A stretch of 64,000 nt of DNA from a virus (IMGVR_UViG_3300011242_000001:114439-178438), one strand, 5' to 3'; positions 22,604 to 37,812 are shown, counted from the stretch's first letter. Notes: generated by a model not told the origin, from the letters alone. A program made the numbers and translations.

Positions 22604-25600
22604 ATGGAATTTAATAACGCGCCATATCATGACGACTTTGATGAAGATAAAAATCATTATAGCGTATTATTTAAGGCTGGCTACGACGTTCAAGCAAGAG
22701 AACTGAACGTCTTACAATCAATGAAACAATTTCAAATTGGGTCATTAGGTAATCATTTATTCAAAAATGGCGCCAAAATTTCAGGTTGTTCTAATTCATT
22801 CATTCAATACGATTATGTACGTATTAATGATATTGAAAATAAAATAAAATCATTTAATAATACAATATTTAAATTGGTAGGATTAACTTCAAAAGTTGAA
22901 GCTACTATTATTGAAGCATATGAACAAAGTCAAGATGATGATGCACTACTTTTAGTAATGTATACTAAAACAGGTGATAATCAAGAATCAGTATTTCTTC
23001 CTGGCGAAAGTATTGAAATTTATAAAGATGATATTTTACAATATACTGTTAGTGCTAAATTACCTGATAGTCAGCCGACAGATGCGTCTGTACCTGTTAC
23101 CGGCAAATCACTCTTATTTGTGATGGATGAAGGTGTTTTCTTTTATAACAATTATTTTGTTCGTGTACATAAACAGTCTCTATTAGTTGAACGATATCTT
23201 AATAAAGATGAAAACGGTAATATTATCTCAGATGACGCATATCGTATTGGATTTGATATTGTCGAAGATATTATTACGGCTGACGAAGATAAATCATTAT
23301 TAGATCCTCATTTTGGTGCTCCTAACTTTGGTGCACCTGGCGCAGACCGTTATAAGATTAGTTTATATCTATCTATTCGTGATTATGTAGATGATGGTAC
23401 AACAACAAATTTTATTCTTATTGCCAAAGTCCGTCAAAATCATACAGTTGAATATAAAAAAGACGATACTGAATATAATGAAATAATGAAAGAAATTGCT
23501 AGACGTACTTATGAAACGTATGGTGATTTTACATTAGTACCTTGGAAAGCTCACTTCTTAAATGAAAAGAAATCTTTCGAAACAGATACTACAGGATGGT
23601 CATTAAATGGTGATCCAAATAAATATGTTGCTATTGTTTCACCTGGTACAGGATATATTAAAGGTCATCGTATTGCAACACAATCAGATATAGTTGTACG
23701 AGGTAGACTTGCTAAAGATGTTGGTACATTATCCAACCTAAGCACAAATATCAATGAGCCAAAAAGCGTAATTGTTACCAGCAATACAGTTGTTGATTGG
23801 GGTGTTGACTCTAATTTTAAAGCAACTTTACATAATTCAAATGATGCAATTGTTGGTACATTGAATATTTATGACATTTATAAATTAAGCGATACACAAT
23901 ATAAAGTTTTCTTTTATAATGTTGTACGTAATGGAAATGCTAAATTAGAATCAGCCGTTAAAATTAAATTACAAAATGGTTCATTTATTGGCACATGCCC
24001 AATTAATAGCTTTACCAATGCAATAAGTTATGAATCTTCATTATTGATCCCAACGGGTTTAAAAAATATTGTTGGCATTAGTAATGTGAGTATGAAAGTT
24101 AGAAGTAAATTTAGTGCAGTGTTAGATTCATCTGGATCATATACATTTAATGCACAAGGCGATTCAACATTCGTGCAAGATAATTATGCCATTGCATGGG
24201 TAAATAATTCTGGTACTAAATCTAATATTGCATTGTCAAATATTAATATAACTAATGATACAATTAGTGTGTCATTAGGTGCATCTTATGCTGGCGCTAC
24301 TTTTACTTTAATCACCACTGTTAATAAAGTTAATATTCCAAACAGAACTAAAACAAAGACATTAAAAGATGAAAGCATTAATGGTGGCACTGCTGTAAGT
24401 AAAGCAGGATGGTCATATAAATTAAAGTATGATGTAATTAAGCTTGAATCTGTTACAATATCATTTGGTGATGGTACTCCTGAAATTGATATTACTAAAG
24501 AATATTCTTTAGAAAAAAATAAAGGTGATAACTATTATGGTGAATCAATTATTCGTCGTAATACCTATAGAAATATTAATCCTGACGATGTAATTAAAAT
24601 TACATATAGCTATTTCTTACATAGTGCAGAAGGTGAATATTTTAATATCAATTCATATAATGAAGATGATCTATCAGAAATTCCTTTATATAATGGTTTA
24701 AATGCTTCTGATTACTTTGATTTTCGTACAGATGCTACTGATATTAATAAGTCATATTTTAAAAATATACCGGTATGTAATACAAGTATCACTTTTGATG
24801 CTCAATATTATATGTCGCGTACAGACTTATTATTAGTTAATACAAAAGGTGATTTTTATATTAAAGAAGGTATTCCTTCTCGAACAGCTAAAATACCTAA
24901 AGTTGATGAAGATAGCTTGGCAATATGTGCAATATTTTTAGAATCTATGGGCACAGCAGAAGATATTAAAATTCAATTTTATGATAATAAATCTTATCAA
25001 AGTAAAGAATTAAATCGTGTTGCTGAACGTATTAATAAGATTGAAGATGCTGTTACTTTATCTATGCTGGAAATGCAAACTGTTAATATGTCAATTAAAG
25101 ACAGTAATGGTATGGATCGTTATAAAAATGGTTTTCTAGTAGATAATTTTAAATCATTTAGCGCATCAGATATTAATCACGCAGAATATAATGCAGCAAT
25201 TGATACTAAAAACGGTGAATTGAGACCTCAATTTAGACAAAGCAATATTAAAATGTTACTTGATTCTGCTAAAACCGTAAATATGAAAATTAAAAATGGC
25301 ATGGCTATTAAAGAATATAGCGATGACTTATTTATTCAAAATCCATATGCAACACAATCTGTATCTATTAACCCATATTTTATATTCTGTAATACGGGCA
25401 AAGTTGTATTGTCTCCAAATATTGACACATGGGCAGATGATACACATTTACCAAATGTCGCAACTACAATTGATGCCGGAGTCGAAGCACTAACAAAAGT
25501 TGCTGATGCTGCTAAGTTGCTTGGTACAAATTATGGTAGCTGGACCGATCTTAATACTTCAATTGTACAATCTACAAATACAGTTGATAAAGTAAGTTCA

Positions 25601-28600
25601 ACTACTGCACAAAAAGTATTAAATTCTGGCACCGACGGTAAAACAGTTCAAGATATAAAAACGACTACTACTGTCACTACAACAGAAAAGATTAAATCAA
25701 CAACTGTAAATAGTCAGCGCGATGTAAAATCGGTGGAAATTAAATCTAGTATGAAAGCTTATACCATTGAAGATATGGTAAAAGATGTTAGCTTTGTGCC
25801 ATATATTAGATCTAAAACTGTTCAATTTTATGCTAGTAAACTTAAGCCAAATACTCAAGTATATGCTTATTTTGATGGTATCAATGTAACTCAACATTGC
25901 CGACCAATCGCACAAATTGATCCCAAATCAGATAATGTTTTAGTTAATCGTAATGCATCTATGTTTGGTACTGCAACTCTTGTTTCTGATAAAGATGGTA
26001 ATTTAGTTGGGGAATTCCGTATCCCAGCTGCAACATTCTTTACTGGTGAAAAGAAATTTGTTCTTACAAATGACCCACAAAATAGCGGTAATCCAGATAT
26101 TGAAACAACAAGATGCGAAACTTCATATTTCGCTGGCGGTGTTTCTCAAACTAAACAGTCTTCTACATTAAACGTTATTACTCCTACATATAGTTCAACC
26201 AATGATAAAGAAAATAAGTCTACAACATCGGTTAGCCGGGACGTGACAACTTCTACTAAAACTATCACAACCGAGTCTGAAGCTTATTTTATTGAACGTG
26301 AATATACAATAAACGAAGTAAAAGAATATTTTGAAGCAAATCATCCATTATTATCAAATAATTGTAAGGTTAAATCAATTAATCCACATTTTGGTGGTAT
26401 TACATGGGGGGGTAGTGCATCAAGTAGTATACAAAGTGATTTTAATTATGCCAAAATTTTAGCTATTAAAGAACGAGTAGAAGATATCGAAATACTTATT
26501 AACCAATTTGATTCAGCTCGACGTATACAAGCAGATTGGTTTAATTATTCCAACTTACCACCCAAAGAAGCATTCGCTCGTATTAAAGGTGCCTTTGAAA
26601 AAGAAAACGCATCTTGTAAAATTGCCGGTGATAGATGGTATAATAGTATAGAATATCAAAGCTATCTTAAGGAATATAGTAAAGAAAAAGAAGAGGCATT
26701 AATTGCTCGTAATAAAAATGCAGGCTGGACCCGTGTAAATTGGAACGGCGGCTGGTTCCGTGCAATTAATGACCCTGTTGCACAAGGTTTTAAAGTAGAT
26801 GATTCATGCTTTATTTCTAAAGTTGATGTATTCTTTGAATTTGTAGATGACAAATCAGAAATGATATGGTTTGAAATTCGCGAGTTGGTAAATGGATATC
26901 CAGCTGGCCCAAGTGAAGCAATTGGTCGTGTCGAAATAAGTGGGGCCGACCTTAAAAAATATGAAGATAAAACTGGTAATACATCATATCCTGTAGAATT
27001 TGAAGTTCCACTTTATGTAGATGCTAGCAAATCATATGCATTTATTGTAGGCGGATATTCTCCAGAAACGCGCGTATTTATGTCTAAGCTCGGTGCTAAA
27101 TTAATAAACTCTAATTCTATTTTAGAGCAGCCTCCTTTACCGTATACTATGTTCCGTTCTTTAAACGGTGAAACTTGGAATGCTGAACAATTTGACACAA
27201 TGAAAATTAATATTTATCGTTGTGTATTTGATATGTCGCCAAGTAGTATATCATTCTATACCGATAGCCATGATACCACTAATCTTAAATGCCAATTTCA
27301 ACCTATTGAAATACAAAAAGGTAGTAACAAAGTTCGTATATATGCAAATAATCATAATTTAAGAGCAAATGATCGGGTAACTTTAAACTTTAACTCTGGT
27401 TTATATTTCCAGATTGAAGTTACTAATGGTGGTATTCCACAAATTGGTCAACCAATCTCTACATTAACTGGATCAGGTTATATACATGATGTAAAATCAA
27501 CTCCATCATTAAATGTATATGATGTAAATGTTGAAAAAATGGTTGGCGTTTTTAAGAAGGGGCAAGAATTTACTTGTCAAACTCGTAATTATGAATATCG
27601 TGACCTTGTGTCTGCATCAGCAAGTGGCGTTCCAGCAGGTGTTCCTATTGTACAAAATATCGTATTAGGTAATGTTAAAAATATTTCTGATGCGTTAGAA
27701 ATTGATTTGGCAGGCGCATCTTTAGATTTATTTGCAAAAGAACATATTGTAAGAGCAGTTGATACCATCGATAGCTTTATTATTGAAGTAGAAAGCCCAT
27801 TTACTTCATCCGGTCGATTTGGTGGTGAAAATATTTATATCCACGGTAATAATATTAAAGTTGATGTATTCAATGTGAGTGGCCAATATTTAGCATATAA
27901 TAGTAAAGAAGTATGGAATGCAGTTACTCATTCATTTGATGACACAGTTATTCCAGATGTACCATTCTTGCCAATGCATGACGTTGAATTAAGTAATCCT
28001 AGTGTAGTATTATCAAATCGTAATGAATCTCGTGTTATGGGTAAAGGTAATAGTAGCTTTAATGTAGTGGCGAGCTTTACTCCAATTAATCCGTACTTAA
28101 GCCCGGTGATTAATACAGATTCGTTCTCAGTAACTGCCATTAGCAACCGTATCGACTTTATAACTGATACTGTATATAATGTTGAGCCAAATGCAAAAGA
28201 TCGCTATATAAGCGAAACAGACGCATCCAGAGGCGCACAACCATATAAGCATATTACTAATAAAGTATTATTAGAAAATCCGGCCCATGATATGCGAGTT
28301 ATATTTGATGTGCATTTACCGAGCCAAACAGATTTTGAAGTATACGTTAAAGTATCAAAACCAGGTGAAACAGCGGCAGAAAAAGACTTAAGCTGGATAA
28401 AAATTGATAATTATACTAAGAAAAATACAAGTAATAATAAAGGCGATTATATTACATATGATTTAACTTTATCTAAAAACTGTACTGTATGGACTGGTAA
28501 TATTGAGTATATTACATACCGAGTAAAATTAGTAGGTAAATCTAAAAACTCAAGCCTCCCGGTGATATTCAAAAATCTACGAGCGATTGCAGTAACATAA
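22604..28600 (+). CDS. large virion structural protein (DUF4815/VrlC-like), paralogue A
   Basis: PYHDDFD...VQARELN..QS, APGADRYKI, RYKNGFLVDNF, DPVAQGF, terminal NLRAIAVT. Confidence 0.85.
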   Translation: MEFNNAPYHDDFDEDKNHYSVLFKAGYDVQARELNVLQSMKQFQIGSLGNHLFKNGAKISGCSNSFIQYDYVRINDIENKIKSFNNTIFKLVGLTSKVEATIIEAYEQSQDDDALLLVMYTKTGDNQESVFLPGESIEIYKDDILQYTVSAKLPDSQPTDASVPVTGKSLLFVMDEGVFFYNNYFVRVHKQSLLVERYLNKDENGNIISDDAYRIGFDIVEDIITADEDKSLLDPHFGAPNFGAPGADRYKISLYLSIRDYVDDGTTTNFILIAKVRQNHTVEYKKDDTEYNEIMKEIARRTYETYGDFTLVPWKAHFLNEKKSFETDTTGWSLNGDPNKYVAIVSPGTGYIKGHRIATQSDIVVRGRLAKDVGTLSNLSTNINEPKSVIVTSNTVVDWGVDSNFKATLHNSNDAIVGTLNIYDIYKLSDTQYKVFFYNVVRNGNAKLESAVKIKLQNGSFIGTCPINSFTNAISYESSLLIPTGLKNIVGISNVSMKVRSKFSAVLDSSGSYTFNAQGDSTFVQDNYAIAWVNNSGTKSNIALSNINITNDTISVSLGASYAGATFTLITTVNKVNIPNRTKTKTLKDESINGGTAVSKAGWSYKLKYDVIKLESVTISFGDGTPEIDITKEYSLEKNKGDNYYGESIIRRNTYRNINPDDVIKITYSYFLHSAEGEYFNINSYNEDDLSEIPLYNGLNASDYFDFRTDATDINKSYFKNIPVCNTSITFDAQYYMSRTDLLLVNTKGDFYIKEGIPSRTAKIPKVDEDSLAICAIFLESMGTAEDIKIQFYDNKSYQSKELNRVAERINKIEDAVTLSMLEMQTVNMSIKDSNGMDRYKNGFLVDNFKSFSASDINHAEYNAAIDTKNGELRPQFRQSNIKMLLDSAKTVNMKIKNGMAIKEYSDDLFIQNPYATQSVSINPYFIFCNTGKVVLSPNIDTWADDTHLPNVATTIDAGVEALTKVADAAKLLGTNYGSWTDLNTSIVQSTNTVDKVSSTTAQKVLNSGTDGKTVQDIKTTTTVTTTEKIKSTTVNSQRDVKSVEIKSSMKAYTIEDMVKDVSFVPYIRSKTVQFYASKLKPNTQVYAYFDGINVTQHCRPIAQIDPKSDNVLVNRNASMFGTATLVSDKDGNLVGEFRIPAATFFTGEKKFVLTNDPQNSGNPDIETTRCETSYFAGGVSQTKQSSTLNVITPTYSSTNDKENKSTTSVSRDVTTSTKTITTESEAYFIEREYTINEVKEYFEANHPLLSNNCKVKSINPHFGGITWGGSASSSIQSDFNYAKILAIKERVEDIEILINQFDSARRIQADWFNYSNLPPKEAFARIKGAFEKENASCKIAGDRWYNSIEYQSYLKEYSKEKEEALIARNKNAGWTRVNWNGGWFRAINDPVAQGFKVDDSCFISKVDVFFEFVDDKSEMIWFEIRELVNGYPAGPSEAIGRVEISGADLKKYEDKTGNTSYPVEFEVPLYVDASKSYAFIVGGYSPETRVFMSKLGAKLINSNSILEQPPLPYTMFRSLNGETWNAEQFDTMKINIYRCVFDMSPSSISFYTDSHDTTNLKCQFQPIEIQKGSNKVRIYANNHNLRANDRVTLNFNSGLYFQIEVTNGGIPQIGQPISTLTGSGYIHDVKSTPSLNVYDVNVEKMVGVFKKGQEFTCQTRNYEYRDLVSASASGVPAGVPIVQNIVLGNVKNISDALEIDLAGASLDLFAKEHIVRAVDTIDSFIIEVESPFTSSGRFGGENIYIHGNNIKVDVFNVSGQYLAYNSKEVWNAVTHSFDDTVIPDVPFLPMHDVELSNPSVVLSNRNESRVMGKGNSSFNVVASFTPINPYLSPVINTDSFSVTAISNRIDFITDTVYNVEPNAKDRYISETDASRGAQPYKHITNKVLLENPAHDMRVIFDVHLPSQTDFEVYVKVSKPGETAAEKDLSWIKIDNYTKKNTSNNKGDYITYDLTLSKNCTVWTGNIEYITYRVKLVGKSKNSSLPVIFKNLRAIAVT

Positions 28601-28677: not shown

Positions 28678-31600
28678 ATGAAATTTAATTTTGCCCCTTA
28701 CAGCGATACTTTTTCAGAGGATGAAAACTTTTATAAGTTTTTATATAAACCTGGATACGAAGTACAAGCTCGTGAACTCAATGCGATGCAATCAATGTTG
28801 CAAAACCAAATTGCTTCTATTGGTAACCATTTATTTAAAAATGGTGCAAAAATTTCAGGGTGCTCAAATTCATTCGTGCAATATGATTATGTACGTTTAA
28901 ATGAAGTATATAATGATCAATTAATTAAATTGGCTCCATATAATAATAGAGAAATTACTTTAATTGGTGTTGTTTCTGGCGTAGAAGCAACTATTATTGA
29001 TGTGACTGAACAAACAAAAGATGATGCACCGTGCCTAATTGTTATCTATACAAAAACTGGTGTTGATAATGTTCAATCAACATTTATTCCTGGCGAAGAT
29101 ATTGTCTTTGTAGATTCTAATAATGTGACTGTTTATGCCGCAACCGTTCGTTGCCCATCTTGCCCGGAAAATACTACTGCTGATTTAGTACCACCTATTG
29201 GTAAAACATTAATATTCAATATTGATGAAGGTATATTTTATTATAATGGTTACTTTGTTAAAGTTCATAATCATCATATTATCATTGAAAAATATTTGAC
29301 TAAAAATGATGAAGGCGGTATTGTATCTAATCGTACATATCAAGTTGCATTAGATATTACTGAATCAATCGTTACTGCCCAAGATGATGAATCATTATAT
29401 GATCCACATTTAGGTTATCCTAACTATGCGGCAGAAGGCGCCGATCGATACAAGATTTCATTAGAATTGGCTATTCTTCCTTATGAAGATGCGGGTGATG
29501 ACACTAGCTATATTACTCTAGCAAAAGTTCGTCAGAATCATACAGTTGAATATAAAAAAGATGATACTGAATATGCCGATATTATGAAAGAATTGGCACG
29601 CCGTACTTATGAATCATCTGGTAACTTTGCTAATATTCCTTGGAAAGCTCATTTTTTACATGAAAAGAAAAAAACGACTGCTGATACTCAAGGTTGGACC
29701 ACTAATGGTAAAGATGGTAATTTTGTTGCCGTTGTGTCACCTGGTAATGGCTATGTAAAAGGTTACCGAGTATCAAATAATAGCGATACTATTGTAGTTG
29801 GTCGTAAAACTCGTGATACTAAAAAATTACGTGGTGCGGCTGTATCTATTCCAGAATGTACCAATATTACTGTTACTGTAAATGATAGTATTTCTTGGAT
29901 TAATCATAATGGTACGTCTACTCTTACAGATCAAACATTCAATATTTTAGATGCTGAAAATAAATCAATTGGCGCTTTTAAAGCATACGATATCTATAAA
30001 ATAGGTGATAAAACTTATAAGATTTATTTGTACGATCTTAAAATGGTAGCCGGTAAATTATTATCTGCTGGTAAAAGTGTTTCTGTAGCTGATATGTCAT
30101 TTAAAGCAACTATTACAGGCGTATTAAATTTAGAAAGTGCAAATAATACATCTTTATTATTCCCATTAGGTTATTCATCAATTAAAACTGTTCGTGATAA
30201 TGACAATAATAATAATGGTAATACATCAGTTGAAGTTCGTCGTAAATTTACCGGTGTATTAGATAGTAGTGGCAATATCACATTTACCGCTGGTAGTAAT
30301 GAAGCATTTGTTTCACCGGCGGCGGCTAACCCTATTTGTTGGGTAGGATCAAATCCTACTGGTGTAAGTATTGCAATTACATCAAACGCATATACTTATA
30401 CAAGCAGTACATTAAGTCTTAAATTAGGTGGTTCTCACGCTGGCAAAAATATAAACTTTGTTACTACTGTTGCTAGAACTTCACAACTAGAAAAGACTAA
30501 GACATTAACACGTCATTCTTATACATTATCTGCGAAGCCTCCATCAGATACAAATACTGTAATCACATTACCTCATGCAGATGGATATAGATTGGATAGT
30601 GTTAAACTAATTTCTATTAGTGACACTGAAATGAATGAGGATATCACTAATGAATATGTATTCAATGATGGTCAAACGGATAATTTTTATACTGCTGCAA
30701 CATTAACTCGTACCGGTGCGCGTATTTTTAATAATGACGACCGTTTAATTATCACATATTACTATTTTGAGCATAGTGGTAATGCACCATTTTTCACTGT
30801 AGATTCTTATAGCCAATTGGTTAACGATCCTGATTTAGATTTAGAATATAGTGATATACCAACATATACCGATAAAAATGGAACAGTTCATCGCTTAGCT
30901 GAATATATCGATTTCCGGTCTATTAAATTGACATCATTCAGTAACACTGCATTAATACCAACATTTAACTCAACTGTTATTTTTGATGTTGAATATTATT
31001 TGGCTCGTAATGACTTACTGTTAGTAGATGAAAATAGTAACTTCTATTTTAAAGAAGGTATTCCTAGTGAAAACCCAATTTTACCTACTTTAGATGAAAA
31101 CTCAATGGGCTTGTATGAAGTTTATCTTGCTCCATATGTGTATTCAATGGATGATGTTAAAGTAAAATATATTGATAATAAATCATTTAGCATGAAAGAT
31201 ATTGCTCGTTTATTCAAACGTGTTGATAATCTTGAATATGCAATTTCATTATCAATGCTTGAACAGCAAACTCTTAATATGTCTATTAAAGATACAAATG
31301 GATTCGATCGATATAAAAATGGATTCCTGGTAGATAACTTTAAAGGATATTATGCAGCTGATGTAAATCATACAGACTTTAAAGCGGCGCTCGATCGTAC
31401 TAAAGGCCATCTACGACCTCAATTTAAACAAAATAATATTCGTTTAAAATTTGATCCAACTGAATCAACTAATATCGTTAGATTCGGTAATATGGCTATT
31501 ACTAAATTTGAGCATGACTTATTTATTCAAAACCCGTATTCAACACAATCATTATCAATTAACCCATATATGGTGTTTAGACGTAATGGTCAAATGTCCA

Positions 31601-34305
31601 TTTCACCAAATATTGACACATGGTCTGATGATACTCAATTACCAAATATGGTTACAGATATTGATACTGGTGTTGATGCCTTAAAACAAGTAGCTGATGC
31701 AGCAAAATTACTTGGCACTGATTATAGCTCGTGGGTAGATTTTAACTCATCTATTATTGATGAGCAGGTTGAAACTAATACAAGCGCATCTTGGAATTGG
31801 AGAACTTCGGTTCAAACAATTAAAACACAGACGGTTCAAACCGATAGTGCCCGTAATAAAACTGTTACGTCTGTTGGTTCAGAAACTCAATCTTATACAA
31901 TCGATGATATTGTTAAAGATGTAAGTATTATTCCGTATATCAGAAGTCGTATTGTACAATTCTATGCAACTAATCTTAAACCAAATACTCAGATTTATGC
32001 ATATTTTGACGGTATGAATGTTACGTCTCATTGTCGACCAGTCACACAAATATCGGGTACCTCTAATAGTGCAATTTTTGGAGCTACTCCATTAATTACA
32101 GATGCCGAAGGTAATCTTGTTGGCGAATTCCGCATACCGGCAAATACATTTTTTACAGGTGAAAAGAAATTTGTATTGTCGAATGATAAAACAAATAGTG
32201 GCAATCCAGATGTGGAAACAACAAGATGTGAAGCTACTTATTTCGCCGGAGGCGTTGCTCAATCTAAACAGTCTTCTACATTAAACGTTGTTACTCCTAC
32301 ATTTAATCGCACAACTACTGTTGAGAATAAGTCTACAACATCAGTTAACCGTGATGTATCAGTTGTATCATTTTTAAATAGCAACCCATCAGTTATTATT
32401 TCTAGTTTTTCTGGTCCTAATATTCCAGATATGCCAGACTGGGAGGGTCGTCGTGACTGGCACTTCCACTGGATGTTCAACGGTACAAGATGGGTATGGG
32501 ATCCAATTGCTCAAGGTTTTAAAGTAGATCAATCATGCTTTATTTCTAAAGTTGGTGTATACTTTGCAACGGTCGATACTAATGCCGATATTATTTGGTT
32601 TGAAATTCGTGAAATGGTTAATGGATATCCTTCAAATGAAGGAATTGCACGTCGCGAAGTTAAAGCTAGTTCATTAGCTAGCTTTGCATCTGATAATGCC
32701 GATATTGAATATCAGGTTGAATTCCCGGTACCAGTATATGTTGATGCTAATAAAACATATGCATTTGTAATTGGTGGATTCTCGCCTGAAACGCGCGTAT
32801 ATATTTCTACATTAGGTAAACCATTATTGAATCAGCCTGATGTAATTCTTGAGCAACCGCCTCTTGGCTATACTATGTTCCGCTCTTTAAATGGCGAAAC
32901 TTGGAATGCTCAACAGTTCGATACTATGAAAATTAATATCTATCGTTGTGTGTTTGACATGAGCGGAACTACTTTTAAATTCAATACTGAAAATGTTGAC
33001 GCATTTAGTATGACATGCGACTCTACGCCTATTGAAATGGAAACAGGTTCTAAATTAGTTCGTATCTATGCTAAGAATCATAGCTTAAGAGAAGGCGATA
33101 AATTTGTTCTTGATTTCAGTAAAAATAAAATTTATAAAGTTGAATTGACAGCTGGTATTCCACAGATTGGTCAAACAATTAAAACTGATACGGCCGAAGC
33201 TGTTATTCGCGATATTCGTATTAATACAGCAGATGAATATGAAATAATGGTTGAACAATTAGTTGGTACATTTGAGCTGAATCAAACATTTAATTGTGAA
33301 GCTAAAGCATATGAATTCCGTGATACTTACATTATGAATGACATGGGTATCAATGCTAGCAATATTACACAGAATAGTGCGGATGGTAAAATTATAGCAA
33401 TTAGTAATTATACTGCTGGTAGCACAACAGGTGGATTGCCAACATCTGTTTTGGCTAAACAACATACTGTAAAAACAGTTGATTCATTAGATTCATTTAT
33501 TATTCAAATTTCACAAAATGCAGTTGAAACCGGCCGTTTTGGTAATGACTCAATTGTGATTAATGGTAATAATATTAAATTTGATATGTTCAACGTAGCA
33601 GGTCAATGCTTAACATATGATTCAAATACAGCATGGTATGCAAATACATATAAAGCAAGCGGCTCATTTGGTAATAGAATGGATATTACACCACTTGCTG
33701 ATAATTATGTATCTGAAGCATGTATTGCATTATCGGCAATCAATGAAAAAGCAACTGTTGGTATCGGTAATAGTTTTACAATTGAAGTTACTTCTAAATT
33801 AAGCAGCCCATATGTAAGCCCTGTATTTAATACAGATTCATTCTCAGTGACAACTGTATCTAACCGAATTGAAGATATTAATGCATTAAACTATAATGTT
33901 GCACCAAATGCAGCAAATAGATTTATACCAGAAACTAAAAACTTTGGTAGTGAAATTTATAAGCATATCTCAACTAAGGTATTATTAGAAAATGCTGCTC
34001 TTGATATGAGAATTATCTTTGATGTATTCTGCGCTAATACAAGTAATTTTGATGTATATGTAAAATTATTAAATTCTGCAGAAGAAGATGAAACTTTAGT
34101 AGATTGGATAAGAATTGATAAATACGATAAGGTACGTGTGAATAATACAGATTTTGTTGAATATGATTTAACTTTATCTAAACATTGTACGCTATGGACC
34201 GATACAACACAATACGTGTCATATCGTGTTAAATTAGTAGGTCGGGGAACAAATTCAAGTCAACCGGTCATATTCCAAAATCTAAGAGCCATTGCTATAA
34301 CATGA
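28678..34305 (+). CDS. large virion structural protein (DUF4815/VrlC-like), paralogue B
   Basis: colinear with 22604..28600 over its full length. Confidence 0.85.
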   Translation: MKFNFAPYSDTFSEDENFYKFLYKPGYEVQARELNAMQSMLQNQIASIGNHLFKNGAKISGCSNSFVQYDYVRLNEVYNDQLIKLAPYNNREITLIGVVSGVEATIIDVTEQTKDDAPCLIVIYTKTGVDNVQSTFIPGEDIVFVDSNNVTVYAATVRCPSCPENTTADLVPPIGKTLIFNIDEGIFYYNGYFVKVHNHHIIIEKYLTKNDEGGIVSNRTYQVALDITESIVTAQDDESLYDPHLGYPNYAAEGADRYKISLELAILPYEDAGDDTSYITLAKVRQNHTVEYKKDDTEYADIMKELARRTYESSGNFANIPWKAHFLHEKKKTTADTQGWTTNGKDGNFVAVVSPGNGYVKGYRVSNNSDTIVVGRKTRDTKKLRGAAVSIPECTNITVTVNDSISWINHNGTSTLTDQTFNILDAENKSIGAFKAYDIYKIGDKTYKIYLYDLKMVAGKLLSAGKSVSVADMSFKATITGVLNLESANNTSLLFPLGYSSIKTVRDNDNNNNGNTSVEVRRKFTGVLDSSGNITFTAGSNEAFVSPAAANPICWVGSNPTGVSIAITSNAYTYTSSTLSLKLGGSHAGKNINFVTTVARTSQLEKTKTLTRHSYTLSAKPPSDTNTVITLPHADGYRLDSVKLISISDTEMNEDITNEYVFNDGQTDNFYTAATLTRTGARIFNNDDRLIITYYYFEHSGNAPFFTVDSYSQLVNDPDLDLEYSDIPTYTDKNGTVHRLAEYIDFRSIKLTSFSNTALIPTFNSTVIFDVEYYLARNDLLLVDENSNFYFKEGIPSENPILPTLDENSMGLYEVYLAPYVYSMDDVKVKYIDNKSFSMKDIARLFKRVDNLEYAISLSMLEQQTLNMSIKDTNGFDRYKNGFLVDNFKGYYAADVNHTDFKAALDRTKGHLRPQFKQNNIRLKFDPTESTNIVRFGNMAITKFEHDLFIQNPYSTQSLSINPYMVFRRNGQMSISPNIDTWSDDTQLPNMVTDIDTGVDALKQVADAAKLLGTDYSSWVDFNSSIIDEQVETNTSASWNWRTSVQTIKTQTVQTDSARNKTVTSVGSETQSYTIDDIVKDVSIIPYIRSRIVQFYATNLKPNTQIYAYFDGMNVTSHCRPVTQISGTSNSAIFGATPLITDAEGNLVGEFRIPANTFFTGEKKFVLSNDKTNSGNPDVETTRCEATYFAGGVAQSKQSSTLNVVTPTFNRTTTVENKSTTSVNRDVSVVSFLNSNPSVIISSFSGPNIPDMPDWEGRRDWHFHWMFNGTRWVWDPIAQGFKVDQSCFISKVGVYFATVDTNADIIWFEIREMVNGYPSNEGIARREVKASSLASFASDNADIEYQVEFPVPVYVDANKTYAFVIGGFSPETRVYISTLGKPLLNQPDVILEQPPLGYTMFRSLNGETWNAQQFDTMKINIYRCVFDMSGTTFKFNTENVDAFSMTCDSTPIEMETGSKLVRIYAKNHSLREGDKFVLDFSKNKIYKVELTAGIPQIGQTIKTDTAEAVIRDIRINTADEYEIMVEQLVGTFELNQTFNCEAKAYEFRDTYIMNDMGINASNITQNSADGKIIAISNYTAGSTTGGLPTSVLAKQHTVKTVDSLDSFIIQISQNAVETGRFGNDSIVINGNNIKFDMFNVAGQCLTYDSNTAWYANTYKASGSFGNRMDITPLADNYVSEACIALSAINEKATVGIGNSFTIEVTSKLSSPYVSPVFNTDSFSVTTVSNRIEDINALNYNVAPNAANRFIPETKNFGSEIYKHISTKVLLENAALDMRIIFDVFCANTSNFDVYVKLLNSAEEDETLVDWIRIDKYDKVRVNNTDFVEYDLTLSKHCTLWTDTTQYVSYRVKLVGRGTNSSQPVIFQNLRAIAIT

Positions 34306-35577: not shown

Positions 35578-35955
35578 TTAAGGATTGTTATTCCTATTCC
35601 GTACTAACTCCACAACTTTTTTACATTGACTAACATTAAACATTCCAATATGGCAATATTTCGATTCAATTCCCATTTGTTCTGATAGCCATTGATATGC
35701 TTTACCGCGAGACATTGTGCCGCTTTTCCATAAAGGATCAAACGCTTCATGCGCTTTTGATTTAGCTCGACGTAGTTCAGCATTAGCAAGACGACCTAAA
35801 GGTTGATCCGTTAAACTATGTGTACCAACCCATGCATTATCTGCCCCGCACATATAAAATAATTTATTATATAAATCGGGTCGATGTGGATAAACTTTTT
35901 CGCCTGTTACTAATTCAGACTCATATCCGCAATAAGGACAAATTGGATTACCCAT
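35578..35955 (-). CDS. zinc-finger protein (DUF3268-like)
   Basis: CPYCG, WVGTH, PLGRLANAELR, AH.AFDPLW, CHIGMF. Confidence 0.85.
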   Translation of the reverse strand: MGNPICPYCGYESELVTGEKVYPHRPDLYNKLFYMCGADNAWVGTHSLTDQPLGRLANAELRRAKSKAHEAFDPLWKSGTMSRGKAYQWLSEQMGIESKYCHIGMFNVSQCKKVVELVRNRNNNP

Positions 35956-35958
35956 ATC

Positions 35959-36189
35959 TTACTCCACCATTTCAATATTATCAATTTTTAAATTTGTGGT
36001 GTATCCACTTTTATCTTTTACAGATACATATTTTTCAGTAACTAGTTCAAGAAATAAGTCTTCTGTCATTTGATAAGATTGATTTAATCGATCATAAACG
36101 GCTTTAGTCGTTTCATCAGGCGTGATAAATAAAACTTCATCAAATGAATATGTGCATTCATCCGAATACATAATGAATATACCTTTCAT
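35959..36189 (-). CDS. hypothetical protein
   Basis: AGGA RBS; early promoter at 36248..36220. Confidence 0.7.
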   Translation of the reverse strand: MKGIFIMYSDECTYSFDEVLFITPDETTKAVYDRLNQSYQMTEDLFLELVTEKYVSVKDKSGYTTNLKIDNIEMVE

Positions 36190-36219
36190 GATATTTCCTA
36201 CAATTAGGTTGTTACCATA

Positions 36220-36248
36220 ATTATATATTACTTATTTTTGTATGTACA
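36220..36248 (-). promoter_or_regulatory. early promoter TGTACA-N17-TATAAT
   Basis: exact motif on the minus strand. Confidence 0.7.
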
Positions 36249-36393
36249 TTCTTTTATTATTTTTCTTTTTTACTTTCTTCTGAGTATGACTATCCCCATT
36301 GTATCCATGGTGAATAAGAAATTAAAAAAATATAAGAATGAAGAGACATATAAAAAAGAAATAAAGAACATAAAATTTAATAATAAATTATTC

Positions 36394-37000
36394 ATTTCAT
36401 AAAAATAATAAATGACTATTAATAAAGAAATACATAATTGTATAACTCTATATTAGCCATTTTTATAATTATTATTTTATGAAATTTACATGGAGAGCCC
36501 AACAATGCTCGCATCAATCAATTATAGTAAATTGAAATTGCTACAATGGTTTATCCCAAAAGGTTTGACCTTTATACTCTTTGCCATAGAGTATGCATCC
36601 TAATACCATTTTTTAGAGGCTGGTATTACAAATGAAATTAACAATACTTATTTGACTTCCATTTATGGAATGTCATGAAGTGCTTGTCACTTCAATATCT
36701 GAGCAGTAGTTATTAACCTACGTATATCAGATCATAGACTACGGTTGGTATGGCGGATTTTAGAAAACTTACTAGCTACAATATCTTTCTAAAATCTGTA
36801 CTCTTAATCGAGTCTTCATCTATGTTGACGGTGACCTCAACCTGCTTTCACAGGACACCACGTCGTCTGTTGTCAGGGGTAGACAGTGCAGACACTTTAT
36901 TTTGTTAGTAGCATCAGTATTTCAACTAATTTTCATAATACCTATTATTTCGCGCCCGGTAATATGTAAAGGCAGGCTGCAGATTATATCTGAGACTTAT
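36394..37000. ncRNA. candidate large structured ncRNA (alternatively a hairpin-rich origin)
   Basis: no ORF of 60 aa or more; over ten nearly contiguous stem-loops; TATAAATA on the minus strand at 37012..37005. Confidence 0.55.
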
Positions 37001-37068
37001 GTACTATTTATATCATATTTTTACTATAAAATACATATATAATTAAAAAAAGAGCCGAAGCCCTTCTT

Positions 37069-37812
37069 TTATTTTAACGCTTTAACAATTTCATCATAAA
37101 TTTCGTCAGTGACAGCCAGGCATTTACCTGATAACCAACATTCATGATTAGTTTGTTTAGGGGCAGTAGAGCCAGTATAAAAATTAAATCCTATTGAGTT
37201 AAAGTCAAAAATATTTTTTAATTCAAGCTCAATAGATTTAATATCCAGGTCTGCGTCTTTGAATAATTTTAAAAAATCTTCCATATCACGATCAAGATCA
37301 TCTTCATCGGTATCGCGTAATTTTTTCAATAAATTTAATGTATCTTTTACAATTTGATCGTATGATTTATCATTGATATCTAATCGTGAATATAAAGCCG
37401 AAAAATCTTCAAATGTCATATCAACCTTAGAATTAAGGTCTACATACCAAAGATCTTCTTTACCGGTATTACCAATTTGTGCATCGTCAAATGGAATAAT
37501 ACGTCGACTTATCCCAAATGTGTCAGACGTTCCAGACTCACCAGTCATAATAAATGATTTTGATCTCATTGGTAAATCTTTCTCACCTAAAAACTTATCT
37601 AAAATTATAGTATAATGATTAGATGTATTGGCAGATCGTCTTACTGTACTAGATGTATCCATGAGATAGCAATCATCATCAAAGTTACCACCACGCCATA
37701 ATTCTACATGCAATGATTTAGAGCAATATTTTTTGACAATTTCAATTGCCTTTTCAAGAGTAATTGATTGTTTGTGTTTTTCTGATTCATTTAAAAATGA
37801 TGCAAAGTTCAT
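37069..37812 (-). CDS. putative internal head protein with ART-like motifs; paralogue of 10148..10903
   Basis: MNFASFLNES; LWRG, NHYT, PMRSKS, HECW; ATTAAATA at 37840..37833. Confidence 0.6.
   Translation of the reverse strand: MNFASFLNESEKHKQSITLEKAIEIVKKYCSKSLHVELWRGGNFDDDCYLMDTSSTVRRSANTSNHYTIILDKFLGEKDLPMRSKSFIMTGESGTSDTFGISRRIIPFDDAQIGNTGKEDLWYVDLNSKVDMTFEDFSALYSRLDINDKSYDQIVKDTLNLLKKLRDTDEDDLDRDMEDFLKLFKDADLDIKSIELELKNIFDFNSIGFNFYTGSTAPKQTNHECWLSGKCLAVTDEIYDEIVKALK

Follow-up and report, generated by a model that had tools for sequence, protein, structure and literature searches.

What occupies the longest stretch without open reading frames (ORFs) in a 64,000-nucleotide (nt) piece of phage DNA, and could it act as an RNA? 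The window, by which we mean the whole 64,000-nt stretch analysed here, comprises bases 114439-178438 of the 380,997-bp genome of a T4-related phage with direct terminal repeats, whose baseplate protein shares no more than 35% identity with those of cultured T4-like phages. Its gap at 36190-37068 holds no ORF larger than 54 amino acids (aa) and, at 879 nt, exceeds every other stretch of the window that lacks an ORF of at least 75 aa, the next two measuring 403 and 414 nt; an earlier note on this DNA had rightly picked it out as the longest non-coding gap. The same note proposed a large structured RNA of no known family, a proposal now supported by strong covariation among seven paralogues and two orthologues. 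Our preferred reading, which we hold with a little less than even confidence, is that the gap contains one of seven diverged copies of a ~770-nt non-coding element that likely encodes a stand-alone folded RNA.

The seven-copy family

An all-versus-all comparison of the long ORF-free gaps, together with blastn and nhmmer searches, revealed seven colinear paralogous elements in the 381-kb genome. They lie at genome positions 26.4, 57.9, 86.9, 150.7 (copy A, the locus in the window), 190.3, 264.7 and 343.1 kb, five oriented one way and two the other, and they are spread more evenly than random placement would give, no two lying closer than 29 kb (P = 0.011 for a circle, 0.014 for a line). In each element, a left block of 57 nt is followed by an AT-rich spacer and then by a core of ~530 nt, ~770 nt in total. 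The nhmmer profiles built for the left block, the 5' core and the 3' core find exactly seven places each, always together and in the same order. For copy A, nhmmer gives the following extent.

36263-37029, minus (the likelier strand): whole element of copy A, comprising left block, spacer and core; equals genome 150701-151467

The span originally marked, 36394-37012, lies inside the element but is too narrow, since the conserved element reaches ~130 nt further left. The cores are 48-72% identical among the seven copies, which form two subfamilies, A/B/C and D/E/F/G. No ORF is conserved among the copies: the ORFs within the copies vary in position, frame and length, and because the longest ORFs differ from copy to copy, the element is non-coding. 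Coding by small ORFs, including those from the left-block ATG and from ATG/GTG/TTG in GGTATGGCGG, was rejected on the grounds that these are likewise not conserved among the copies.

Two orthologues, A2 and C2, were found at loci A and C of a related phage, these being the 2 real loci among 33 returned by a metagenome pattern scan; comparisons of nine copies in what follows refer to the seven paralogues together with A2 and C2. The neighbouring gene at locus A shares 91.8% identity between the two phages, compared with about 70% for the element. The right half of A2 (L034:1163-1369, compared with genome 343132-343341 and 151148-151458) is 82% identical to copy C and 70% identical to copy A, and a short hairpin of C2 carries the letters of copy A. 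These two cases hint that segments may have been exchanged between paralogous copies in a mosaic-like fashion.

Beyond these, five pattern scans of viral contigs returned 25 loci. Six of the viral-contig hits fall on four fragments that share 95-99% identity with this genome and represent the orthologues of copies B, D, E and G; in another viral scan, three of the five hits fell on those same four-fragment contigs and the remaining two did not match. Two further viral pattern scans gave nine hits, none of them real, as was the case for the 20 loci from a scan of 185,579 prokaryote genomes. Three hits in Acinetobacter proved to be a single conserved protein gene whose match to the pattern is due to chance. 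A blastn search of the gap against 50,697 phage records gave no match. Relatives sought via the baseplate protein were not found, and those sought via an RNA-ligase alignment led to the same strain only; RNA-ligase relatives with 58-83% identity do exist in other assemblies. In sum, no homologue outside this phage lineage was found in phage records, viral contigs, metagenomes or prokaryote genomes.

Rfam 15 (4227 models, including GOLLD, ROOL, OLE, HEARO, RNase P, tmRNA and 6S) has no match in the 64-kb window at gathering thresholds. With expect values (E) of up to 10, the region 36000-37300 yields ten weak matches of at most 20.6 bits, against thresholds of 37-130, none of them to a large-RNA family; the earlier note, too, had found no match to tmRNA, RNase P or group I/II intron signatures. 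Likenesses to 16S helix 45, to group I R/S elements and to the uL11 site were dismissed as short words with no model support. Full-text searching of the literature turned up no description of this RNA family. With no relative in Rfam, in the phage records or in the bacterial genomes searched, the family is likely a new one. To our knowledge, very few classes of large RNA with a complex fold are known in bacteria and phages, most of them without a function. Here the seven diverged copies of a single genome suffice to define the fold, and they stand at fixed and evenly spaced loci of which A and C are also occupied in the related phage, which makes this RNA unusually tractable.

The fold and its conservation

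Across the seven paralogues, standard pairs fill 92.7% of pair cells, compared with 74.5% in shuffles and 32-48% when the partners are slid. Compensatory change is frequent: 46 of 73 pairs have changed on both sides, versus 26.5 in shuffles (none of 500 reached 46) and 10-14 with slid partners. The orthologues behave alike, with 16 double changes restoring a Watson-Crick pair against 2 single disruptions between A and A2, and 13 against 3 between C and C2. Furthermore, when 36480-37000 is folded and compared with dinucleotide shuffles, the plus strand gives z = -2.71 (1/100 as good) and the minus strand z = -3.30 (0/100). Covariation and folding z-scores, two of the checks proposed with the original description of the locus, both come out in its favour. 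The element contains at least 13 covarying helices and two pairings of a loop with a distant strand, one of the two covarying; judged by these comparisons, the fold is under selection.

The adjacent stems said to tile the locus all occur in the sequence, and 10 of the 11 are usable. They are given below with the other parts of the fold in copy A, from left to right.

36263-36319, minus: left block, from the alignment of seven paralogues (nhmmer E 1e-14 to 8e-11 in 7/7); holds ATGACT and TATCCRTGAT
36304-36309, minus: left strand of helix P0, TCCATG on plus; pairs with 36489-36494 across the spacer (duplex predictions, nine copies)
36320-36488, minus: AT-rich spacer, purine-rich on plus; GC 0.175-0.20; aligns poorly save for short motifs
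36489-36494, minus: right strand of P0, CATGGA on plus; partner of 36304-36309
36495-36510, minus: hairpin GAGC[CCAACAAT]GCTC; covarying stem, 8-nt loop invariant in 9/9 copies
36558-36573: stem AAAGGT/ACCTTT; kept with changed letters in 5/9 copies, by eye
36574-36594, minus: hairpin ATACTCT/AGAGTAT with conserved 7-nt loop TTGYCRT; 4/7 pairs changed on both sides, 91.8% paired
36601-36628, minus: hairpin TAATACCA/TGGTATTA, loop ending in an invariant GGC; 8/9 pairs changed on both sides, 100% paired
36653-36694, minus: two hairpins (36653-36675, 36676-36694) in an insertion private to copy A
36697-36732: stem ATCTGA/TCAGAT; kept with changed letters, by eye in the alignment
36744-36748, minus: GTTGG in the invariant TACGGTTGGT (pseudoknot 1); likely partner of the CCAAC loop, 240 nt apart
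36753-36799, minus: long stem of 14 bp, loop with GCTAC (36775-36779); a 9-14 bp stem in 9/9 copies
36775-36781, minus: first strand of pseudoknot 2, GCTACAA; pairs with 36905-36912
36800-36813, minus: short hairpin ACTC/GAGT beside the long stem; a second hairpin in 9/9 copies, letters differ
36830-36859, minus: helix GGTG/CACC around hairpin CCTG/CAGG (36841-36854); 4/4 pairs of CCTG/CAGG changed on both sides
36865-36893, minus: nested hairpin GTCTG.TGTC/GACA..CAGAC; 4/6 and 4/4 pairs changed on both sides (8/10)
36905-36912, minus: second strand of pseudoknot 2, TTAGTAGC; partner of the long-stem loop
36914-36929, minus: hairpin with minus loop UGAAAUA (UGAUAAY in other copies); alignment, by eye
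36935-36965, minus: hairpin with conserved 15-nt loop TATTATTTCGCGCCC; 6/8 pairs changed on both sides, 92.5% paired
36980-36992, minus: terminal hairpin CAGAT/ATCTG; in other copies CAAC/GTTG, CAATG/CATTG or AATATT/AATATT, by eye

P0 has 78.9% of its cells paired in the paralogue alignment versus 28-49% when slid, and 5 of its 11 pairs have changed on both sides, a count matched by 10 of 500 shuffles. Since P0 links the left block to the core across the spacer, both belong to one molecule of about 770 nt. The spacer, whose length is variable (left block and core lie 168-349 nt apart among the copies), would be looped out by P0, and the left block would be the 3' tail if the RNA is read from the minus strand. 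The helix formerly thought to close the domain, TTTACAT/ATGTAAA, was rejected: it is 50% paired, has no compensatory pairs and does no better than shuffles, and P0 closes the AT-rich spacer instead.

Within the core, the pairs of the GAGC/GCTC stem (565-568:577-580) are distributed as GC:7 UA:1; AU:6 GC:3; GC:6 AU:2; and CG:5 UA:3. The CCAAC loop likely forms a long-range pairing with GTTGG (pseudoknot 1). All five pairs are invariant in 7/7 paralogues and 9/9 copies, and because letters that never vary are neutral on pairing, we infer this contact rather than read it from covariation; a frozen loop with a distant partner suggests a defined tertiary or intermolecular contact. The long stem at 36753-36799 has letters unrelated between the subfamilies, and its loop GCTAC pairs with 36905-36912, which makes a second pseudoknot: 4 of the 7 pairs have changed on both sides (GCUAC/GUAGC versus GCAAU/AUUGC, between subfamilies) and 93.9% of cells are paired. 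The letters of the hairpin at 36914-36929 vary by copy (AAGAT/ATCTT, ATAGT/ACTAT and GAAT/ATTC, by eye). The hairpins at 36653-36675 and 36676-36694 are without comparative support because their insertion is unique to copy A; at this site the other six paralogues and A2 are gapped, and C2 has a different insertion. On minus, the CCTG/CAGG hairpin has the loop UGAAAG, and a GAAA loop is present in 4/9 copies (A, G, F and C2, read from the alignment).

Strand and promoter

We take minus to be the probable strand of transcription; the chief reason is a conserved TGnTATAAA promoter directed into the element.

37005-37015, minus: promoter-like TGATATAAATA reading into the element; predicted start near 37000

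TGnTATAAA stands at the right boundary in 7/9 copies, and a promoter-like site at the same boundary, aimed inward, in 5/7 paralogues; combined with a -35 element (TTTACA/TGTACA/TTTACT) at 17 nt, TGnTATAAA is the best sigma-70-like boundary site in B, D, F and G. No plus-strand promoter upstream of the left block is comparable or conserved among the copies. The earlier note had read the octamer TATAAATA as a T4-type late promoter. It is indeed found exactly, on minus at 37012-37005, and lies within the last ~40 nt in 7/9 copies, but its identity as a late promoter is no better founded than that of a host-type one: with the conserved TG that stands one base upstream, it is equally compatible with an extended -10 promoter of the sigma-70 type, and the intergenic TATAAATA sites of the genome (35 co-oriented versus 13 anti-oriented) resemble control AT-rich octamers and are thus not specially tied to gene starts. 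The strict promoter motif has five sites genome-wide, three of them at elements; being this rare, it is not a general promoter type of the phage.

The minimum free energy (MFE) is lower on minus in 7/9 copies, and minus is also the direction in which the next gene runs in 6/7. Functional RNAs are usually A-rich and C-poor, and the conserved unpaired columns on minus comprise A36 U22 G11 C7. The short hairpin at 36574-36594 would contain C.A mismatches in three copies if read as plus. Many DNA runs contain the stretch, and so do RNA libraries: contigs from three RNA libraries, which belong to three studies, map to 36636-36955, 36801-37024 and 36728-36891 with at least 99% identity, which speaks for presence and is not proof of transcription. 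The 2.8-kb flanks are uncovered in 3/4 runs, which counts as no evidence.

The word GAGACWTAT recurs in copy A, in the spacer at 36345-36353 (GAGACATAT) and at the right end at 36992-37000 (GAGACTTAT), where it coincides with the predicted start of the minus transcript. It is also found in the spacers of B, G and A2, and in copy B it is preceded there by a -10-like TATAAC.

Possible roles and genomic surroundings

If the element encodes a stand-alone RNA, transcription would begin near 37000, under the TGnTATAAA promoter at 37005-37015, and proceed leftwards to an RNA end at ~36263. The RNA would be stable and would work through its fold, as a scaffold rather than as a message, and the letters frozen in nine copies (the CCAACAAT loop, TACGGTTGGT and the GGGCGCGAAAUAAUAG-type loop) may constitute a binding or tertiary core. 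With its complexity and frozen loops, the fold suits a stand-alone RNA acting through its shape, as is proposed for the large ornate RNAs. Guide-like complementarity to the rest of the genome does not exceed chance, the best matches scoring 32-38 bits versus 34-42 bits for the best shuffles. A stand-alone RNA particle of this kind would be a new 'ornate' RNA, and the first with an obligate multi-copy organisation.

Several points weigh against the stand-alone RNA. The transcript, its strand and both its ends are predictions, the left block is not followed by a visible terminator, and the flanking genes of the copies are unrelated to one another, so that there is no linked partner protein. Moreover, seven diverged, evenly spaced copies are more easily explained by a role tied to the locus than by a diffusing RNA. 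As to the strand, the evidence had been called mixed, with promoter and GAAA loop speaking for minus and G.U pairs for plus; the former stands, but the G.U counts are in fact balanced, both for the pairs common to the two strand predictions (7 on plus versus 8 on minus) and with a strand-neutral stem finder (34 versus 40). The second pair of the long stem is a conserved plus-sense G.U in 6/9 copies, which becomes an A.C mismatch on minus, and a contig of run X16 extends to 37024, 24 nt upstream of the predicted minus start. These last two observations would be at home with a functional RNA on the plus strand, running from left block through spacer and core to the right-end hairpins. So would a possible, speculative G.U in a GYC/GGC loop-loop contact of three copies, the co-orientation of C and C2 with their flanking genes in the plus sense, and the hairpins followed by T-runs past the right end of A, B and D. 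Nevertheless, we think a plus-strand RNA unlikely, if worth keeping in view: it would lack a conserved promoter-like site upstream of the left block, have the higher MFE in 7/9 copies, carry loops that are U-rich and G-poor, and place the C.A mismatches described above in the hairpin at 36574-36594; the terminator at 37044-37071, described below, is scored on minus only.

Given how evenly the copies are spaced relative to chance, the main rival is that they are seven replication origins, each with a folded ~530-nt pre-primer RNA that ends in, or hybridises to, the AT-rich stretch. ColE1 RNA II and the R-loop origins oriF and oriG of T4 are models for such RNA-primed origins, and share with the element the order of a promoter, a folded RNA of ~500 nt and an AT-rich stretch that melts readily; the T4 genome carries several origins, which are not homologous to one another. 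The even dispersal with its 29-kb minimum gap, the layout of promoter, ~530-nt fold and spacer of ~100 to several hundred nt, the low GC of the spacer in copy A, and the occupation of the same loci in the related phage are all consistent with origins, which would also be expected to show no dependence on the orientation of flanking genes, as is observed. However, an RNA of the likelier minus strand would be rich in pyrimidines across the spacer, and pyrimidine-rich RNA makes weak RNA:DNA hybrids. P0 pairs the RNA flanks of the spacer, a better fit to looped-out RNA than to a hybrid, and at least 13 covarying helices with two pseudoknots far exceed the needs of known primers, ColE1 RNA II and the T4 origins included. 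In addition, the GC skew tracks gene direction only, with no turn at the elements, iterons were not found, and no antisense RNA is known. We regard replication origins as a rather unlikely explanation. A specific form of it, in which seven homologous ColE1-RNA-II-like origins recruit the replisome through the frozen core (CCAAC loop, GUUGG and conserved loops) and open at the looped-out spacer, seems to us quite unlikely, but would be the first multi-origin system defined by one conserved large RNA fold. A locus-tied role could reveal an RNA-based start of replication, or an RNA-based organisation, in a giant T4-like genome; in either event, ~5.5 kb of seemingly empty phage sequence is marked as functional.

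The remaining explanations are less favoured. A giant cis-regulatory leader of the left-hand gene, belonging to a multi-copy riboswitch or leader family, is suggested by the next gene on the left, which is co-oriented with minus in 6/7 copies, and by copy D, where the ribosome-binding site of that gene lies inside the left block and the start codon at most 30 nt further. Leader families typically consist of diverged paralogues with a frozen core before different genes, as here; T-box and riboswitch paralogues, for example, occur in numerous diverged copies within a genome and have covarying helices as well as a frozen core. The co-oriented gene is not found in all seven copies, though: C and C2 face a convergent gene, with no co-oriented gene downstream, and keep the fold, which argues against a leader. 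Furthermore, the downstream genes are unrelated, A and B have promoter-like sites of their own between element and gene, and ~770 nt far exceeds known leaders, being 3-4 times the size of T-box or riboswitch paralogues, so that we consider this role improbable. A selfish, non-autonomous mobile element, intron-like or resembling the guide RNAs of IS200/605 elements, would account for several dispersed copies in both orientations, the feature by which HEARO was reportedly first flagged as mobile, and for the apparent exchange of segments seen in the right half of A2. It is nonetheless decidedly improbable. The genome encodes no reverse transcriptase (RVT_1 is absent genome-wide, with 3/14 control genomes scoring), and neither a TnpB-type nuclease nor a Y1 transposase (PF07282 and PF01797 absent; controls score 8/14 and 6/14), which speaks against a group II intron and a HEARO or omega RNA. 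Intron models of groups I and II give no match, and the elements lie outside genes, between complete ORFs, in both orientations and at the same loci in the related phage; none of the 20 bacterial, 33 metagenome and 25 viral pattern hits is a copy outside the lineage. That the fold matters as DNA, as single-stranded hairpins or a cruciform, we hold to be very improbable. Departures to G.T and A.C are equally frequent on both strands, a symmetry that selection at the DNA level would give, but pairings across 130-350 nt and two pseudoknots are ill-suited to cruciforms, a conserved promoter is aimed into the element, and the stretch occurs in RNA-library contigs.

Among the known large RNAs, ROOL and GOLLD usually sit next to tRNA genes, unlike the present element: ARAGORN found no tRNA or tmRNA in the window, and the 16 tRNAs it places genome-wide, at 2.4, 12.9 and 370-381 kb, adjoin none of the copies. 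All 16 are on the minus strand, mostly clustered toward the right end of the genome (370.5-380.6 kb), and the long ORF-free gaps near that end are there because of them. In other respects the element resembles GOLLD, ROOL and OLE, large 'ornate' RNAs of bacteria and phages (PMC12286853, PMC5737381): it exceeds 500 nt, is ORF-free and phage-borne, combines many covarying helices with pseudoknots, and would, like them, be an RNA selected for its fold with no function known. It differs from them in having no Rfam match, in its seven diverged and dispersed copies per genome, and in the AT-rich spacer that would be looped out. A further parallel is offered by the jumbo phage PA5oct, which depends on host RNA polymerase and, according to the portion of the report used here, makes abundant ORF-free transcripts of 236-619 nt, ncRNA001-004, of unknown function from ORF-free loci (PMC7318152). 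That portion reports neither structure nor paralogy for them (PMC7318152), and the present element matches none of the 50,697 phage records.

Two signals outside the fold belong to the genes on either side of copy A.

37044-37071, minus: intrinsic terminator of the upstream gene (37069-37812), by terminator prediction scored on minus only; outside the element
36220-36248, minus: sigma-70-like promoter of the next gene, TGTACA-17-TATAAT (10/12 matches), serving 35959-36189; outside the fold

Two genes left of the element, at 35578-35955 (minus), is a gene for a DUF3268 zinc-finger protein of 125 aa (Pfam E = 7e-39), with 70% DNA identity to its counterpart in the related phage. Copy B lies in a cluster (genome 263075-266554; L002, L010) with a T4 Rnl1-type RNA ligase directly to the right, identified by Pfam, and a polynucleotide kinase/phosphatase-like gene two genes to the left, identified by eye from its translation; this copy is thus flanked by an RNA-repair gene pair. 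Immediately outside the left block of copy E (genome ~26370-26420, L013), the heptamer CTTTATT is repeated in about six tandem units. Elsewhere in the window, two adjacent giant paralogous ORFs at 22604-28600 (1998 aa) and 28678-34305 (1875 aa) lie on plus beside baseplate genes, and both match PHROGs 358 and 877, whose function is unknown.

Finally, the gene at 37069-37812 (minus), to the right of the element, begins MNFASFLNES, and genes flanking copies E and F (genome 27359-28315, 28342-29331 and 86433-86849) begin MKFTDYLVEN, MSFLDHLNEA and MKFADFLNEA. These N-termini resemble the capsid-targeting leader of T4 internal head proteins, and the genes may encode injected head proteins; detectable paralogy among them is confined to E_R1 and E_R2.

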